From positions 28 to 64,027 of the forward strand of contig JBHLNY010000001.1 in NCBI GenBank assembly GCA_048941065.1: a stretch of 64,000 bases of DNA, in the 5' to 3' direction. A model generated the notes under the pieces. That model ran no database searches. It had not been told where the DNA came from and was given only the letters and a program-made list of their open reading frames with translations. The translations under genes were made by a program, and so were the position numbers. The stretch is from Promethearchaeota archaeon (lineage in GTDB: Archaea; Asgardarchaeota; Lokiarchaeia; Sigyniarchaeales; SOKP01). The number at the start of each line of letters is the position of its first letter. Within the stretch, counting starts at the first letter, position 1. Shown in pieces: positions 31,808-53,183 of the stretch.

Positions 31808-31930
31808 AAATTAAACATTATAAATTTTTATTTCAGTTAAATTTATTCTTAAAGAAAATAAATAAATAAATAGAATTTAATTAATTCTATATGAGAATAA
31901 TCTATATAATTAAAAGATTAATTCAAAAGG

Positions 31931-32344
31931 TGTGTACTTATACAATTTGGATCAGATTTAGGTATTAACCATGAAGATATCGAGAAAATAAGTCCTCAAA
32001 TCACATTTATAACTTCTAATGCAGATATAGAAGCAATTGCACTCGTAAGTGTTGAGGGATATCAGATTGCTTTCTCTGCGTTGCCCCAATACCATGTTGA
32101 TGGTGATCAATTTTGTGGACTTGCTAGTGCTTTATTAATGACAGGAAGATCAACAATTCAGACTTTATTTCAAGAAGATATCAGCGAAATAATTGTAAGG
32201 GCTGAAAATGGATATATTGTAGTTACTAATGCAGGACGTTTAGTGATTGTATGTGCTGGAACTATTATAGATACCCTAATGAAAACCGTAAAAGTAATGC
32301 GAATCGCAGCAAATAATCTCTATAAGATTTTTGAGGGTCGTTAA
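31931..32344 (+). CDS. Roadblock/LC7 (MglB-like) domain protein
   Basis: The core VEGYQIAFSALPQYHVDGDQFCGLASALLMTGRSTIQTLF...IIVRAENGYIVVTNAGRLVIVCAG is a typical Robl_LC7 pattern. I extended the start from the track's TTG 32081 to in-frame GTG 31931 to recover a full ~137-aa domain. Confidence 0.75.
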   Translation, partial: CVLIQFGSDLGINHEDIEKISPQITFITSNADIEAIALVSVEGYQIAFSALPQYHVDGDQFCGLASALLMTGRSTIQTLFQEDISEIIVRAENGYIVVTNAGRLVIVCAGTIIDTLMKTVKVMRIAANNLYKIFEGR

Positions 32345-49088: not shown

Positions 49089-50219
49089 TTAAGTATTTTT
49101 TTTAGATTCTTTTGGTAATAATTTTCTCATCCATTCTGGAAAGGCAGTAGTTATGCGTAGATTTGTTTTTAAAACAACATACCTCTCATTATTGTAATTT
49201 AATTCTTCGATGATATCATACTCCTTCAAATATTCTATATTTTCCATGAGATAATCAAGAGACTTTTTAGATACTAATTTGGGTAATTCATCTCTTGAAA
49301 TTAACCCATTACGCAATTCAGAAAGAATATTATACTTTTTAGAATCTGCCATTATTTGAAATAATCTATAGGAATCTTTTTTTAACTCTTCCTCTTCCTT
49401 TTTTTCATATTCACTGAAATATTCCTGAACTTTTGGAAGTAATAAATCAATCAATTCTGGTTTGTCATCGATATACTCTATAACACTATCAGGTGGAATT
49501 CTTTCAGCTTTTATTTCTTTTAATAAAAGTACATACTTTTCGACTAAACCAATTTGATTTATAATGATAATTTGCTTCTCATCTAATGTACCGATTATTT
49601 CTTCAAAAACTTTATGAGGAGAATTTTCAATAAACCATTCTCTTAGTTGTTCTAGTTCTACAGGACCTTTTGAGAGTTTTTCTAAAGTTTTATATATATG
49701 ATTATCACTTATTAGAATTGCTATCTTTTCTTCTTCAGTTTTTTCTCGTGTCTCATCCATTACTGCCCTGTACAAGTTCTTTACTCCAGCTTTAATTAAG
49801 CCATTGTTTTTCAGAATTAATTCTACATCTTCCTCATGATATTCTTTCTCGTTAATATAAAAACCTGTAAAAATCTCCTCATTTGATTGAAACCTCTCTG
49901 AAAAGTCTGTACATAGATTTGCTATAATTTCCTCATTTGCTGGTTTAATTTGCTGCTCAAGAATTACTGAGAACATTAGCATTTCTTTATTACCTCGAGC
50001 CCAATCTGAATGAATTTCAAAATAATAATTCAATGATTTTAAATTTTCAAAAGAATGTGTGAAAAAGCCTTCATTAAATTGCTGGTCCATAATATTTGCT
50101 ATTTTGACCTCTAATTCCTTCGCTAATATATCCTTCGGGTATGAATAAAATACTAAAGGTCCAATTTTGCGGTGAAAATATGATAAGGCTACGGTTGTTT
50201 TCAAATAACGAATCTCCAC
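49089..50219 (-). CDS. hypothetical protein: longin-like N-terminal domain plus two winged-helix-like modules
   Basis: The N-terminus VALSYFHRKIGPLVFYSYPKD...FFTHSF...LNYYFEIHSDWARGNKEMLMFSVIL reads as beta-beta-alpha-beta-beta-beta-alpha. The C-terminal half has two HTH-plus-wing-like segments. Confidence 0.5.
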   Translation of the reverse strand: MEIRYLKTTVALSYFHRKIGPLVFYSYPKDILAKELEVKIANIMDQQFNEGFFTHSFENLKSLNYYFEIHSDWARGNKEMLMFSVILEQQIKPANEEIIANLCTDFSERFQSNEEIFTGFYINEKEYHEEDVELILKNNGLIKAGVKNLYRAVMDETREKTEEEKIAILISDNHIYKTLEKLSKGPVELEQLREWFIENSPHKVFEEIIGTLDEKQIIIINQIGLVEKYVLLLKEIKAERIPPDSVIEYIDDKPELIDLLLPKVQEYFSEYEKKEEEELKKDSYRLFQIMADSKKYNILSELRNGLISRDELPKLVSKKSLDYLMENIEYLKEYDIIEELNYNNERYVVLKTNLRITTAFPEWMRKLLPKESKKNT

Positions 50220-50423: not shown

Positions 50424-51167
50424 ATGATCAATAATAGAATTAAATTAATTGGATTTGATTTAGACGATTGTCTTTTTGATTCAACCGGACTTTCTGACAG
50501 AGCTAGAATTAAGGGAATTGATGCTATGATTAATTTAGGATTAGATATTGATAGAGATGGAGCAATTGTAAAAATCCAAGAGATTGTAAAAGAATATGGA
50601 TCAAACTTTTCTAAACATTATAATTACTTTATTCGAAGATTAAATGAATTTGAAAACTATAGAATCTCCAGCAATGTTAAATATAAATATATAGCTGCTG
50701 CGGTAATAGCATACCATCAAGAAAAAATTGATTCTATAAAATTATATGAAGATGTAAAACCTTGCTTGAAAAGATTAAGAAAAATGGGGATTAAAACGGC
50801 AATAATAAGTGATGGTATCCCCATAAAACAATATGAAAAAATTTTAAGACTTAAAATTGATAAGTTAATAGACTTGGTTGTAATCTCAGATGAAATCGGC
50901 ATTAAAAAACCAAACCCTAAATTATTTAATTACTGTTTAAAAAAATTTGGACTTAAGGGTTCAGATACAATTTATATAGGAGATCGAATTGATAAAGATA
51001 TTATTCCTGCTCGTTTAAATCATATTTTCAGTGTCTATATTCATCGGGGAGGTAAATATGATACTTATAAACTAGATAAAAATAATTCTACTAGATATAA
51101 AGCTGATTATGAAATATCAAATTTAAATGAAATATTTGGGATATTAATAGAAATTAATAAAAAATAG
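50424..51167 (+). CDS. HAD-superfamily hydrolase
   Basis: Motif I is FDLDDCLFDS, motif II is ISDG and motif IV is GDRIDKDI. Confidence 0.85.
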   Translation: MINNRIKLIGFDLDDCLFDSTGLSDRARIKGIDAMINLGLDIDRDGAIVKIQEIVKEYGSNFSKHYNYFIRRLNEFENYRISSNVKYKYIAAAVIAYHQEKIDSIKLYEDVKPCLKRLRKMGIKTAIISDGIPIKQYEKILRLKIDKLIDLVVISDEIGIKKPNPKLFNYCLKKFGLKGSDTIYIGDRIDKDIIPARLNHIFSVYIHRGGKYDTYKLDKNNSTRYKADYEISNLNEIFGILIEINKK

Positions 51168-51189: not shown

Positions 51190-52008
51190 ATGAAAATTGC
51201 TTGTATTCAACCCAAAATATTTCAAGATAGAAGAAACTGTTATTACGAGGTAGAAGATCTATTAAAAGTTTTATTAGAAGAAACTAATAAATGTGATGTC
51301 ATATGCTTACCAGAAAGATGGATTCCAGTTTATAGCGATTCTTCTAAAAACTTTCAAAAAGAAAGAGGAGATGATTATTCATTTATCAAGTATTTAGCAA
51401 ATGAATACGGTATAAATGTTTTATCAGGAGGAATATGGGAAAAACGTGATAATCCAAAAAAATTGGTAATTACATGCTATTTTTTTAATGAGAATGGTGA
51501 AGAAGTAGGGCGTCAGGATAAAATTCATCTCTATTCTTATGAACGAAAGCAATTTGAACCTGGAAATGAATTAAATATATTTAAATTAAAAAATTTACAT
51601 AATTTTGCAATTCTCATTTGCTTTGATATGGCTTTTTTTGAAACTCCTAGATTGGCTGCTGAGAATGGTGCTGACTTTTTACTCTCTCCTACTCAGATAA
51701 GACAGGAAGGAATGGATAATTGGAATACTTATTTGAAAGCACGTTCTCTTGAAAATAGAATACCAGTTGCAGCTTGTAATACTTTTGGGACTTTTTTTAG
51801 AAAAAAATTTTTAGGGAATAGTAAAATAATCTCCTTTATTAAAGGAAATATTTCACCAGCTAAGCTTAAGATAGTTGAAGGACCTAATGATTCGAATGGA
51901 TATATCTTTGATGATATTGATTTAGATTTTCCAAGAAAATTAAGAAAAATTCGACTAAAAGAAAAAATTGAGAAAAATAAAATTATAGTGAAAAATGTAA
52001 ATAGCTAA
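51190..52008 (+). CDS. carbon-nitrogen hydrolase (nitrilase superfamily)
   Basis: The Glu-Lys-Cys triad context is CLPERW ... K ... ILICFDMAF. Confidence 0.85.
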   Translation: MKIACIQPKIFQDRRNCYYEVEDLLKVLLEETNKCDVICLPERWIPVYSDSSKNFQKERGDDYSFIKYLANEYGINVLSGGIWEKRDNPKKLVITCYFFNENGEEVGRQDKIHLYSYERKQFEPGNELNIFKLKNLHNFAILICFDMAFFETPRLAAENGADFLLSPTQIRQEGMDNWNTYLKARSLENRIPVAACNTFGTFFRKKFLGNSKIISFIKGNISPAKLKIVEGPNDSNGYIFDDIDLDFPRKLRKIRLKEKIEKNKIIVKNVNS

Positions 52009-52105
52009 GTTGCTTAATTTATATACGATTCTAAAAATTATTAATTTTTGTTATCTTATACAACATTGTTTTAATGATGCAACTAAGTTTTAGAGTTGTT
52101 TAAAT

Positions 52106-53047
52106 TTGGATATGAAGATTATGCTATGCGGGCTTGAAGATGCAGGAAAAACGTCAATTTTACTAGTCTTAGATAAGAAATTTAGTCTCTTAACTTCAGT
52201 TGCCCCTACTATAAAGGCTAAGAGAACTTCACATACTAATAAACTATTAGGTATTTCAATCACACGTTGGGATTTAGGTGGTCAAAAAAGTTTTAGAAAG
52301 ATATATATTGACAATAAAAGTAAATATTTTACCGAAATGCGTTCAATCTTTTACGTAATTGATATACAAAGTAAAGATAAATTTACTGAAGCTCTATCTT
52401 ATCTTAAAGATATTATAAATATTATTTCACATAACCCTCCTGAAAATTTTCAACTATTAATCCTTTTTCATAAATATGATCCAGATATAAAAAATAAAAA
52501 AGAAATTTTAGATAATTTAAGCTTTTTAGAGAAAAAAATAAATTCACTAATTAAAAAATTAAATTTCTCTGTTTATAGAACTTCGATCTATGATGATTCT
52601 TCTTTACTAAAAGCATTTTCAGATGGAGTATTTACTGCTACTGAGAAATCAAAATTGCTCCAATCTTTATTAAGAGATTACATGAGTAAAACATATACTA
52701 GTTCTACTCTACTTTTGGATCAAAATTGTTTTATAATCGCAAGTAGAGCTACTGATGATGCATACCAGGGAATATGCGAAGCAATTGCTCCCAGATTAAC
52801 AAATGCATTAGAAAAATTAGAAGAATGGGATATTGATACAAAAGATATTATCACAAATATAGAATTTCCTCAAAATAATGTAGAAGATTCTAGAGAGGGC
52901 ATAATTTTTTTAAGAAAATTAGAAATAAACAATGATAGATTATATCTTATTGCACTTTGCTTAAACAAAAGGATACAGAAAAAATCCTATGATTATCTAC
53001 CAATATTAGCTAAAAATCTAAAGAATTTATTAGAAAGTTTTGAATAA
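52106..53047 (+). CDS. Rag/Gtr1-family small GTPase with C-terminal roadblock-like domain
   Basis: G1 is GLEDAGKTS and G3 is WDLGGQ. G4 is HKYD (Rag-type HKxD rather than NKxD). The G5 region YRTSIYDDSSLLKAFS parallels RagA TSIWDETLYKAWS. The C-terminal ~120 aa aligns by eye with the Rag C-terminal roadblock domain. It starts at TTG 52106 or ATG 52112. Confidence 0.85.
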   Translation: MDMKIMLCGLEDAGKTSILLVLDKKFSLLTSVAPTIKAKRTSHTNKLLGISITRWDLGGQKSFRKIYIDNKSKYFTEMRSIFYVIDIQSKDKFTEALSYLKDIINIISHNPPENFQLLILFHKYDPDIKNKKEILDNLSFLEKKINSLIKKLNFSVYRTSIYDDSSLLKAFSDGVFTATEKSKLLQSLLRDYMSKTYTSSTLLLDQNCFIIASRATDDAYQGICEAIAPRLTNALEKLEEWDIDTKDIITNIEFPQNNVEDSREGIIFLRKLEINNDRLYLIALCLNKRIQKKSYDYLPILAKNLKNLLESFE

Positions 53048-53112: not shown

Positions 53113-53133
53113 ACCCCACCCTGTGGGTGGGGT
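53113..53133 (+). promoter_or_regulatory. perfect GC-rich hairpin ACCCCACCC-TGT-GGGTGGGGT abutting a TATA-like box
   Basis: It has a 9-bp stem (7 G-C pairs) and a 3-nt loop in an otherwise AT-rich 136-bp spacer. TTTATATA follows at 53133-53140, about 43 nt upstream of the Orc1/Cdc6 ATG. Confidence 0.4.
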
Positions 53134-53183
53134 TTATATATGTATTCATAAATATAAAGTAAAAATACAAATTAATAACAAAA

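Follow-up and report, generated by a model that had tools for sequence, protein, structure and literature searches.

Rag GTPases, which dock on Ragulator/EGO and signal to TORC1, are central to nutrient sensing in eukaryotes, and their relatives in Asgard archaea bear on the origin of this eukaryotic switch. Asgard Rag-like GTPase-roadblock proteins, fusions of such proteins with longin domains, and longins of the GAP type have all been published already; the family treated here is known and has been crystallised from Lokiarchaeota (two Rag-like structures in the PDB), and nothing categorically new is reported in this respect. The first structure, LokiRagO (PDB 8yl2), is a GTP-bound, homo-tetrameric RagA-like small GTPase from the Asgard Lokiarchaeota, and the second, LokiRagM (PDB 8zla/9m28), is a monomeric Rag-like small GTPase from Lokiarchaeota. 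In MK-D1 (Promethearchaeum syntrophicum), GTPase-roadblock proteins are often annotated as 'Arf' while being structurally nearest to Rag, and occur as many paralogs (Tran et al. 2024; PMC10933270); roadblock-mediated dimers have been predicted for Asgard proteins of this class (PMC10933270). In the published classification, eukaryotic sequences are nested among Asgard sequences in the RagGtr clade (bioRxiv 10.1101/2024.02.28.582541), and a group named ArfL, which lies near the Rag clade, is exclusively Asgard and separate from RagGtr. GAP-type longins (folliculin/NPRL2/SMCR8) are defined by a GP motif, at the loop or start of the longin domain's beta-2, together with a conserved arginine finger, and the question which GTPase family is acted on by the Asgard members was left open (PMC12290439).

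The window (the whole 64-kb stretch of DNA that was analysed) contains an uninterrupted ORF on the forward strand at positions 52106..53047, with the stop codon at 53045-53047. Counted from TTG 52106 the ORF encodes 313 aa; an in-frame ATG at 52112, from which a product of 311 aa is read in public gene calls (100% identical), is the more likely start. The product is most probably (at a probability of roughly 0.8) a Rag/Gtr-like GTPase from an Asgard archaeon of Lokiarchaeia type (Promethearchaeota), built from a G domain and a roadblock tail and belonging to one lineage-restricted subfamily within a large Asgard expansion, and not the counterpart of either RagA/B or RagC/D. Among Pfam families, Gtr1_RagA (PF04670), the family named in a preliminary description of this DNA, was the top match (98.5 bits relative to a cut-off of 22 bits, E 5e-28, model positions 1-214 of 232), followed by Arf with 69.3 bits, a margin that is partly due to the Gtr1_RagA model covering the beginning of the C-terminal domain as well. 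When the protein was searched against the PDB with phmmer, the matches were 8yl2 (1.6e-30), 8zla (3e-24), RagA and Gtr1 (both ~1e-14) and Arf (~1e-10). LokiRagO, from the same archaeal class and with the same two domains, was thus the best match by sequence, and it was also the best by structure (E 1.9e-24, TM 0.67-0.72). It differs from the protein described here in sharing only 27% identity and in belonging to another subfamily; its ortholog in the same genome is a different gene, C401_3212_4177 (clade support 100/99). LokiRagM has a Rag-like architecture as well, but its overall superposition was poor (TM 0.41-0.44, rmsd ~15 Å), implying that its domains are arranged differently; the LokiRagM clade in our trees held no member from the genome under study. 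The MK-D1 proteins belong to the class to which this protein belongs. With eukaryotic RagA/B, Gtr1, RagC/D and Gtr2 it shares HKxD, TSI[WY]D, a long switch II and a C-terminal roadblock domain without a lipid anchor, and these proteins could be superposed on its model over their full length (TM 0.70-0.73), although identity is 18-20% and an adjacent gene for an A-type/C-type partner is absent at this locus.

The G domain (residues 1-176; 52106..52633, forward strand, as are all other features of this gene) was delimited by AF2 secondary structure and by alignment with RagA, Arf1 and Sar1. All of G1 to G5 were intact, and invariant across relatives. The G1 (P-loop) motif GLEDAGKT (residues 9-16; 52130..52153) and the G3 motif DLGGQ (residues 56-60; 52271..52285), both of which had been noted in the preliminary description, could be read directly; G9, G14, K15 and T16 of G1 and the switch-I threonine T35 (52208..52210) were invariant in the alignment of relatives (A1), and Q60 of G3 is equivalent in alignment to Q66 of RagA. 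At G4, HKYD (residues 122-125; 52469..52480) represents the Rag-type HKxD rather than the NKxD of Arf/Ras, as had been proposed, and H122, K123 and D125 were likewise invariant in A1. HKxD is common to RagA, RagC, Gtr1 and Gtr2 in the alignment (as HK[MV]D), whereas Arf1, Sar1 and the Arf-like protein of the same genome (C318) have NKxD. The G5 region TSIYD (residues 159-163; 52580..52594) matches TSIWD of RagA, and the likeness to RagA near G5 that had earlier been seen by eye was recovered by phmmer, which aligned YRTSIYDDSSLLKAFS with FRTSIWDETLYKAWS of RagA. The second by-eye pairing, LLLDQNCFIIAS with LLFERATFLVIS, was recovered by phmmer too, and by hhalign as well. The switch-II region is longer than in Arf. 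As beta-1 starts at about residue 2 in the AF2 secondary structure, the protein is without an N-terminal amphipathic helix, and a check of the sequence for lipidation sites found no Gly2 and no C-terminal Cys.

The 137 aa that follow (residues 177-313; 52634..53044) form a roadblock-fold domain according to the AF2 model of the GTPase (pLDDT 83.4, pTM 0.83) and Foldseek. Straight after the G domain, the model has the topology alpha-beta-beta-alpha-beta-beta-beta-alpha, with predicted elements alpha1 (180-196), beta1 (200-204), beta2 (210-215), alpha2 (218-240), beta3 (247-253), beta4 (264-274), beta5 (277-285) and alpha3 (288-312). The best full-length Foldseek matches of the model were all Rag-type proteins, with LokiRagO, RagA, Gtr1, RagC and Gtr2 aligned over 300-330 columns at TM 0.66-0.73; matches to Arf covered ~170 columns, corresponding to the G domain alone, at TM ~0.4. 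At the sequence level, a profile search of the PDB with the C-terminal domain alone gave nothing significant against Rag C-terminal domains (best E 0.1), a Pfam scan of this domain found nothing significant for Robl_LC7 either, and hhalign against the eukaryotic Rag C-terminal domains was weak (25% probability, 46 columns). Because these sequence-level tests were weak or not significant, the roadblock assignment rests on the predicted structure. The Rag-type C-terminal alignment of ~130 aa, made by eye in the earlier work, was accordingly recovered by sequence for its first ~45 residues, the remainder being covered by the predicted structure. Across 119 orthologs, which make up a highly conserved subfamily, the roadblock half was more tightly constrained than the G domain, alpha2, beta3 and beta4 being the most conserved elements; this pattern is consistent with a conserved protein interface.

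In the G-domain tree, a Rag-like superclade comprising the protein, its paralogs and the eukaryotic Rags was split from Arf/Sar with support of 99/97, and the full-length tree, which is informative for subfamily membership only, set this superclade apart with support of 95/95. The protein formed a subfamily of its own inside the superclade, the backbone between the Rag-like subfamilies was not resolved, and eukaryotic RagA/Gtr1 and RagC/Gtr2 clustered with another protein of the same genome, the paralog C211. The designation 'bona fide Rag' in the preliminary description was thus borne out for the architecture, a G domain with HKxD followed by a roadblock-fold tail, but not for a specific grouping with the eukaryotic Rags, where C211 is found instead; if a counterpart of the eukaryotic Rags is sought among the proteins of this genome, we point to C211 as a better candidate. 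The combination named as refuting in the preliminary description, placement within Arf/Sar or MglA by HMM and phylogeny together with a C-terminal domain unlike a roadblock, did not arise. The G-domain tree was considered as a decisive test, which was undercut by AU tests run on 171 G-domain columns: grouping of the subfamily with eukaryotic Rags was not rejected (p 0.70, with a likelihood above that of the free tree), and neither was its grouping with Arf/Sar (p 0.54). Since both groupings were retained, the G domain taken alone leaves the affinity of the subfamily unsettled.

Two other readings of the family assignment were weighed against these data. According to the first, the protein would be a GTPase of the Arf/Sar family (ArfR type) to which an unrelated extension has been added at the C-terminus. 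Arf/Sar and Asgard ArfR proteins share with it the G-domain fold and motifs of the form GLDxxGKT and WDxGGQ, the Pfam Arf score is 69 bits, Arf chains are found in the PDB at ~1e-10, and a grouping with Arf, Sar and C318 is not rejected by the G-domain AU test. This reading is nevertheless very improbable: an N-terminal amphipathic helix and NKxD are typical of Arf/Sar proteins, which lack a roadblock domain, and the protein described here has the opposite in each case (with HKYD at G4, and without Gly2); the true Arf-like protein of the genome, C318 (Arf, 117.7 bits), falls together with Arf1 and Sar1 and apart from the subfamily, with support of 97-99; and Arf structures match the G domain only. 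According to the second, the protein would belong to the Asgard-only ArfL group, so that its Rag-like architecture would exist without specific kinship to eukaryotic Rag/Gtr, and 'Rag' would describe its looks rather than its ancestry. The NCBI name of the orthologs ('ADP-ribosylation factor-like protein'), the rank of Arf as second-best Pfam family and the published position of ArfL apart from RagGtr fit this reading, as do the unresolved backbone, the clustering of eukaryotic Rags with C211 rather than with this protein, and the indecisive AU tests. We regard membership in ArfL as possible, if somewhat unlikely, given that constraining the protein to group with eukaryotic Rags raised the likelihood above that of the free tree, and that HKxD, the roadblock domain and the full-length structural matches to Rag proteins are all present.

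The preliminary description had taken the gene to be present as a single copy, which holds only within the 64-kb window: ten further strong paralogs of the Gtr1_RagA type were found in the genome, all on other contigs, and related genomes each contain 7-13 Rag-like paralogs. This corrects the premise from which homodimers, or a partner such as a stand-alone roadblock protein, had been deduced. No paralog adjoins the GTPase gene, and hence the neighbourhood gives no hint of a heterodimer such as the obligate one that A-type and C-type eukaryotic Rag subunits form through their roadblock domains. The stand-alone roadblock gene proposed as a source of the partner (31931-32344) was rejected as a candidate: it is 20 kb distant, and the genome has 12 genes of the Robl_LC7 type, this one included, none of which is linked with the GTPase. 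Moreover, position 31931, given as the start of that gene, is a TGT codon, the first canonical start not occurring before 32081. Close orthologs of the GTPase (at least 49% identity) were found in few genera of one family, and the subfamily spans 67-95% identity over dozens of MAGs.

Beyond the family, motifs, predicted fold, number of paralogs, distribution and gene context, which were established directly, a function can be proposed by analogy. With its complete G domain the protein is presumably active and would hydrolyse GTP, and it would most likely serve as a GTP/GDP switch, the analogy being with RagA-D, Gtr1/2 and LokiRagO. The roadblock domain may provide a platform for oligomerisation or docking, the partner being the protein itself, any of the ten paralogs, or regulators of the longin/roadblock type; dimerisation cannot be assumed, because of the two Lokiarchaeal relatives with solved structures one is a homotetramer and the other a monomer. 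Hydrolysis of GTP would be set in trans by a GAP with an arginine finger, perhaps one of the longin type.

A candidate for such a regulator is encoded near the GTPase gene. The divergently transcribed gene for a protein of 376 aa, here called unk376 (49089..50219, reverse strand), specifies a longin-like N-domain with a GP motif, and a C-terminal part that is helical with a wing-like hairpin. The GP motif (50157..50162, reverse strand; G20-P21 in the ORF, G19-P20 in the alignment of unk376 proteins, A2) is situated where predicted beta-2 begins in an AF2 model of low confidence (pLDDT 49.8, unreliable), and the arginine of the WARG motif (49995..49997, reverse strand; R75 in the ORF, R74 in A2) is a candidate arginine finger. 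Both were invariant in the 15 sequences of A2, and unk376 thus has the two features of the folliculin/NPRL2/SMCR8-type GAP longins. In folliculin (FLCN), R164 is the GAP finger for RagC (PMC9473554); the arginine of unk376 falls at position ~60 of the Pfam Folliculin model and FLCN R164 at ~61.

A Pfam scan of unk376 gave no match, and direct comparisons of unk376 alone with Pfam Folliculin (E 0.12, one of six members) and, by hhalign, with FLCN (E 0.17) were below significance. The N-domain of unk376 could be linked by hhalign to the N-domain that is fused to Rag-like GTPases in the paralogs (probability 84%, E 7.9e-6); the score of this pair was 37.5-38.7, compared with 12.2 for the reversed template and at most 17.6 for 30 column shuffles. 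The link was found by profile-profile comparison alone, BLASTP between unk376 and the Rag-fused N-domains being not significant. The Rag-fused N-domain in turn matched Pfam Folliculin in five of ten members (best E 1.2e-4, with a best score of 22.4 bits that is slightly below the cut-off of 23.3), and its top profile match in the PDB was 8yqg, a chain deposited as 'Longin domain'. The profiles therefore offer a lead by which the N-domain of unk376 may be connected to folliculin transitively, via the Rag-fused domain. When longin profiles were compared by hhalign with the single human FLCN sequence, both best local alignments fell at LARG (R164), without significance.

Between unk376 and the GTPase gene lie 1.9 kb and two unrelated genes, assigned by Pfam and synteny, for a HAD-family hydrolase (50424-51167, forward strand) and a CN-hydrolase/nitrilase-family protein (51190-52008, forward strand). 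Both are immediately upstream of the GTPase gene, run in the same direction and are part of a conserved block, unk376-HAD-CN-hydrolase-Orc1-like, in which the close orthologs of the GTPase occupy a variable slot. The unk376 gene was adjacent in 26 of 31 orthologs; at one locus (L060) only 75 nt separate unk376 from the GTPase gene, which has a different slot in the block there, and at another (L072) the GTPase gene is preceded, at 22 nt and in the same direction, by an unk376-like gene. Synteny seemed at first to be strong evidence for a partnership with unk376, and was undercut by blocks that lack the GTPase: the block is complete without any Rag-like gene in three genera (g2, g4 and g5), and in a fourth (g3) the slot is filled by an unrelated gene. 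Since several genera have the block but no GTPase in it, its synteny is independent of the GTPase, and the partnership is only a lead. In addition, unk376 was found in all 13 genera sampled, compared with the few that have close GTPase orthologs, and at seven of eight intermediate subfamily loci there was no longin within 4 kb.

What the locus offers here is a concrete, tentative GTPase-longin pair, in which unk376 would be an arginine-finger GAP of the folliculin/NPRL2 type and its winged-helix-like C-terminus an output domain. The homology to the Rag-fused N-domain with its Folliculin matches, the invariant GP and arginine aligned to the position of FLCN R164, and the adjacency in most orthologs, including the close placements, speak for such a pair; we nonetheless consider it unlikely in view of the GTPase-less blocks, the wider distribution of unk376, the intervening genes, the longin-free intermediate loci, the insignificant direct folliculin matches and the unreliable model, and unk376 is no more than a candidate regulator of the GTPase. 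A further reading, by which the GP/Arg longin-winged-helix protein of the block and the subfamily of Rag-like GTPases constitute a minimal archaeal Rag-GAP pair, with Arg75 as the finger that would turn the GTPase off, as folliculin does for RagC, and the winged helix directed to DNA or another output, is improbable; if true, it would answer the question of which GTPase family is targeted by the GAP-type longins of Asgard archaea.

Possible signals flanking the GTPase gene were read from the sequence. A TATA-like TTTATATA (52019..52026, forward strand), ~85 nt 5' of ATG 52112 and directly past the stop codon of the CN-hydrolase gene, is possibly a promoter of its own for the GTPase gene. On the 3' side of the stop codon, a GC-rich hairpin (CACCCCACCC-TGT-GGGTGGGGT; 53113..53135, forward strand) possibly represents a terminator or a stability element.

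The gene at 52106..53047 (+) encodes a genuine Rag-like GTPase of an already known family, and is not single-copy. Lokiarchaeum Rag-like GTPases with fused roadblock and longin domains have been in print since 2016 (PMC4917890), Rag-like GTPase-RB and longin-GTPase-RB architectures have been described with AF2 dimer models in MK-D1 (PMC10933270), and eukaryotic sequences are nested among Asgard ones in the RagGtr clade (bioRxiv 10.1101/2024.02.28.582541). Crystal structures are already available for two Lokiarchaeal Rag-like GTPases (Foldseek/PDB). The window (contig C11) is AT-rich (GC 22-32%) and belongs to a 3.5 Mb MAG of 410 contigs (89% complete, 6.8% contamination). The open reading frame specifies 313 aa counted from a TTG, and an in-frame ATG two codons further on (52112) yields the 311-aa product of the public gene calls. 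All motifs listed in the preliminary description were found in the sequence: G1 (GLEDAGKT, residues 9-16), switch I (T35), G3 (DLGGQ, residues 56-60), G4 (HKYD, residues 122-125) and G5 (TSIYD, residues 159-163), all of them invariant or nearly so among relatives. In an alignment with RagA, RagC, Gtr1, Gtr2, Arf1 and Sar1 (six reference sequences checked end to end against PDB chains), G4 was of the Rag type (HKxD), the segment between DxxGQ and beta-4 was 4-5 residues longer than in Arf, and the N-terminal helix and Gly2 were both absent. The Pfam comparison proposed earlier returned Gtr1_RagA as the top family (98.5 bits, E 5e-28), followed by Arf (69.3), SRPRB, Ras and Roc; NCBIfam gave the generic small_GTP domain only, under its cut-off. 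Top PDB sequence matches were 8yl2 (E 1.6e-30) and 8zla (E 3e-24), both deposited as 'GTP-binding protein', followed by RagA and Gtr1 (~1e-14) and then Arf (~1e-10). The alignments to RagA previously made by eye were recovered by phmmer against PDB sequences, with LLLDQNCFIIAS of the GTPase aligned to RagA LLFERATFLVIS where the C-terminal domain begins.

An AlphaFold2 model of the GTPase, with a 26-sequence alignment as input, was confident (pLDDT 83.4, pTM 0.83). Past the G domain, elements follow in the order alpha (180-196), beta, beta, alpha (218-240), beta, beta, beta, alpha (288-312), and the predicted topology of the C-terminal domain is roadblock/LC7. Foldseek comparison with the PDB gave full-length matches (300-330 columns, TM 0.66-0.73) to 8yl2 (listed as 'Homo Tetrameric RagA-like small GTPase from Asgard Lokiarchaeota (LokiRagO)'), RagA, Gtr1 of S. 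pombe and S. cerevisiae, RagC and Gtr2, whereas Arf matched over the G domain alone (~170 columns, TM ~0.4), and LokiRagM (8zla/9m28, 'monomeric Rag-like small GTPase LokiRagM') gave a significant match but a poor whole superposition (TM 0.41-0.44). The roadblock assignment draws on the predicted structure and these full-length matches because the C-terminal domain alone had no significant sequence match: a Pfam scan of its 137 residues gave nothing meaningful, and the sole PDB match to a profile of 12 subfamily members was 8yl2 (E 0.1). In hhalign comparisons with four eukaryotic Rag C-terminal domains, alpha1-beta1-beta2 were in register (25% probability, pairwise E 8e-4). Among 119 orthologs, conservation was higher in the C-terminal domain (mean column entropy 0.54) than in the G domain (0.76), with peaks in alpha2, beta3 and beta4, the interface elements of roadblock dimers, a pattern that is compatible with a conserved protein interface but does not prove one.

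The gene had been described as a single copy, a claim that did not survive a whole-genome PF04670 search, which produced 34 matches, including 10 strong ones (72-95 bits) besides the GTPase itself. The identical 10 paralogs were recovered by phmmer with its G domain (E 1e-15 to 1e-31), and same-family relatives had 7-13 matches per genome. By Pfam profile and length, the paralogs (named here by contig) fall into four architectures: GTPase plus C-terminal domain (302-321 aa; C401, C400, C151, C331 and C211), the same two domains preceded by an N-domain (402-500 aa; C111, C91 and C404), a variant that has a coiled-coil tail (C115), and the G domain alone (C366). The stand-alone roadblock gene proposed as a possible partner is nothing special either, being one of 12 in the genome that exceed the Pfam cut-off for Robl_LC7. 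In its open frame (31922-32344 (+); 35 bits on 32009-32251), the first in-frame ATG, GTG or TTG comes at 32081, by which point the domain match has already run for 24 codons; either translation begins at a non-canonical codon such as the ATA at 31940, or the gene is frameshifted or a pseudogene.

Phylogenies were computed from 74 sequences, comprising the GTPase, 3 orthologs, 11 own-genome paralogs, 42 representatives (50% clustering of an exhaustive search), 2 partial PDB sequences, 6 eukaryotic references and, as outgroup, nine other small GTPases of the same genome. In the G-domain tree (171 columns, LG+C20 PMSF), the Rag-like superclade (99/97) stood apart from Arf1, Sar1 and the Arf-like C318 (99/88), but AU tests left an Arf/Sar grouping unrejected: p was 0.70 for the subfamily of the GTPase (95/95) with eukaryotic Rags and 0.54 for the same subfamily with Arf/Sar/C318, neither being rejected. 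The sister of RagA/Gtr1 plus RagC/Gtr2 was the genome's own C211 (24923-25831 (+) of its contig, 302 aa), at 92/93. The full-length tree (301 columns) recovered the Rag-like superclade (95/95), the 13-member subfamily (97/96) and eukaryotic Rags with C211 (96/90), C211 forming a long branch, and its backbone between subfamilies had no resolution. At E <= 1e-6, C211 had exclusively Rag-type PDB matches, whereas the GTPase also matched Arf. The protein described as a 'bona fide Rag/Gtr1-type GTPase' was correctly recognised as Rag-like (Pfam, full-length Foldseek), but eukaryotic Rags group with C211 instead, which is the better candidate for their counterpart in this genome. The ortholog of LokiRagO was C401, not the GTPase studied here, in both trees. 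In published work, an Asgard-only 'ArfL' group is kept apart from 'RagGtr' and placed near Rag; the present subfamily may fall under either label. C318 (14003-14899 (+) of its contig, 298 aa; Pfam Arf 117.7 bits) has an N-terminal helix, Gly2 and a ~130-aa C-terminal extension, and is probably an ArfR-type protein because it grouped with human Arf1 and Sar1 (97-99 support).

Close homologs of the GTPase (227, 67-95% identical) came from Promethearchaeota/Lokiarchaeia MAGs, and most carry the name 'ADP-ribosylation factor-like protein', which is misleading for this Rag-like family. Orthologs at least 67% identical (database records and loci L028-L055) bear the NCBI labels Thorarchaeota, Odinarchaeota, Hodarchaeota, Hermodarchaeota or Lokiarchaeota, some at least of which must be unreliable. 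The exhaustive search gave 1380 clusters at E <= 1e-3; in a phylum-wide sample of 151 genomes, matches of at least 400 bits were confined to the window's genus (5/5) and one genome of another genus. Among species representatives, identity fell from 86% to 49% over about 31 loci, followed by members at 30-39%. Orthologs share the block order DUF2095 / wHTH(-) / unk376(-) / HAD(+) / CN-hydrolase(+) / Rag-like(+) / Orc1-like(+). The slot of the GTPase was compared between genera at loci L108-L115 (G065, G030, G147, G135, G144, G040 and G159), and its flanks were conserved in all loci compared. The slot is variable, since the block occurs without the GTPase (genera g2, g4 and g5, with the Orc1-like gene 60-120 nt past CN-hydrolase), with an unrelated gene of ~250 aa (g3), or with a Rag-like gene (g1, g54 and part of g6). 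A TATA-like TTTATATA lies at 52019-52026, immediately 3' of the CN-hydrolase stop and ~85 nt 5' of the GTPase ATG, and a perfect GC hairpin (53113-53135) separates the stop codon of the GTPase from the Orc1-like gene's TATA-like box.

The neighbouring unk376 (49089-50219 (-)) had no Pfam match and a poor AF2 model (pLDDT 49.8), with the N-terminal pattern beta-beta-alpha-beta-beta-alpha; a GP where the predicted beta-2 begins and an Arg in WARG are both invariant. On profile comparison its N-domain is homologous to that fused to C111/C91-type Rag-like paralogs (hhalign probability 84%, E 7.9e-6, 100 columns; score 37.5-38.7, versus 12.2 for the reversed template and at most 17.6 for 30 column shuffles). 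The GTPase-fused N-domain matched Pfam Folliculin in 5/10 members (best E 1.2e-4, 22.4 bits, slightly under the 23.3 cut-off), its top PDB profile match being 8yqg ('Longin domain', E 0.021). Folliculin model position 60-61 corresponds alike to FLCN R164, C111 R108 and the unk376 Arg; this FLCN residue provides the catalytic finger towards RagC (PMC9473554), and the GAP-type longin signature, GP plus Arg finger, is known in Asgard longins, with the partner GTPase left as a question (PMC12290439). Specific partnership between unk376 and the GTPase nevertheless appears unlikely. In its favour, the GTPase of L060 occupies another position in this block, only 75 nt away from unk376, and that of L072 is preceded at 22 nt by a co-directional unk376-like gene, but the block with unk376 persists where the GTPase is absent (g2, g4, g5), unk376 was found in 13/13 genera sampled, 7/8 intermediate subfamily loci had no longin within 4 kb, and direct matches of unk376 to Pfam Folliculin and FLCN were below significance. 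The unk376 N-domain also has a stand-alone paralog of 174 aa in the genome (C37:15042-15565 (+); 152 bits to the N-domain HMM), with GP present and xRG absent.

At L027 (G008:C89:66000-80000), three Rag-like genes within ~10 kb encode proteins of 500 aa (-), 321 aa (+; orthologous to LokiRagO) and 487 aa (+). This trio is seen repeatedly across the family; its counterpart in the window's genome is spread over contigs C91, C401 and C111. Both long genes of the trio have an N-terminal GP-motif longin domain; the C111-type has the 'ARG' arginine and matches Pfam Folliculin, while in the C91-type the arginine is absent, a split that recalls FLCN/FNIP or NPRL2/NPRL3. Two adjoining genes of ~350 aa (C210:6689-9013 (-)) encode a GP-motif longin domain (50-63 bits to longin HMMs) fused to a non-Rag small GTPase, and the one included in the trees (C210_7973_9013) was placed with the Ras-like outgroup.
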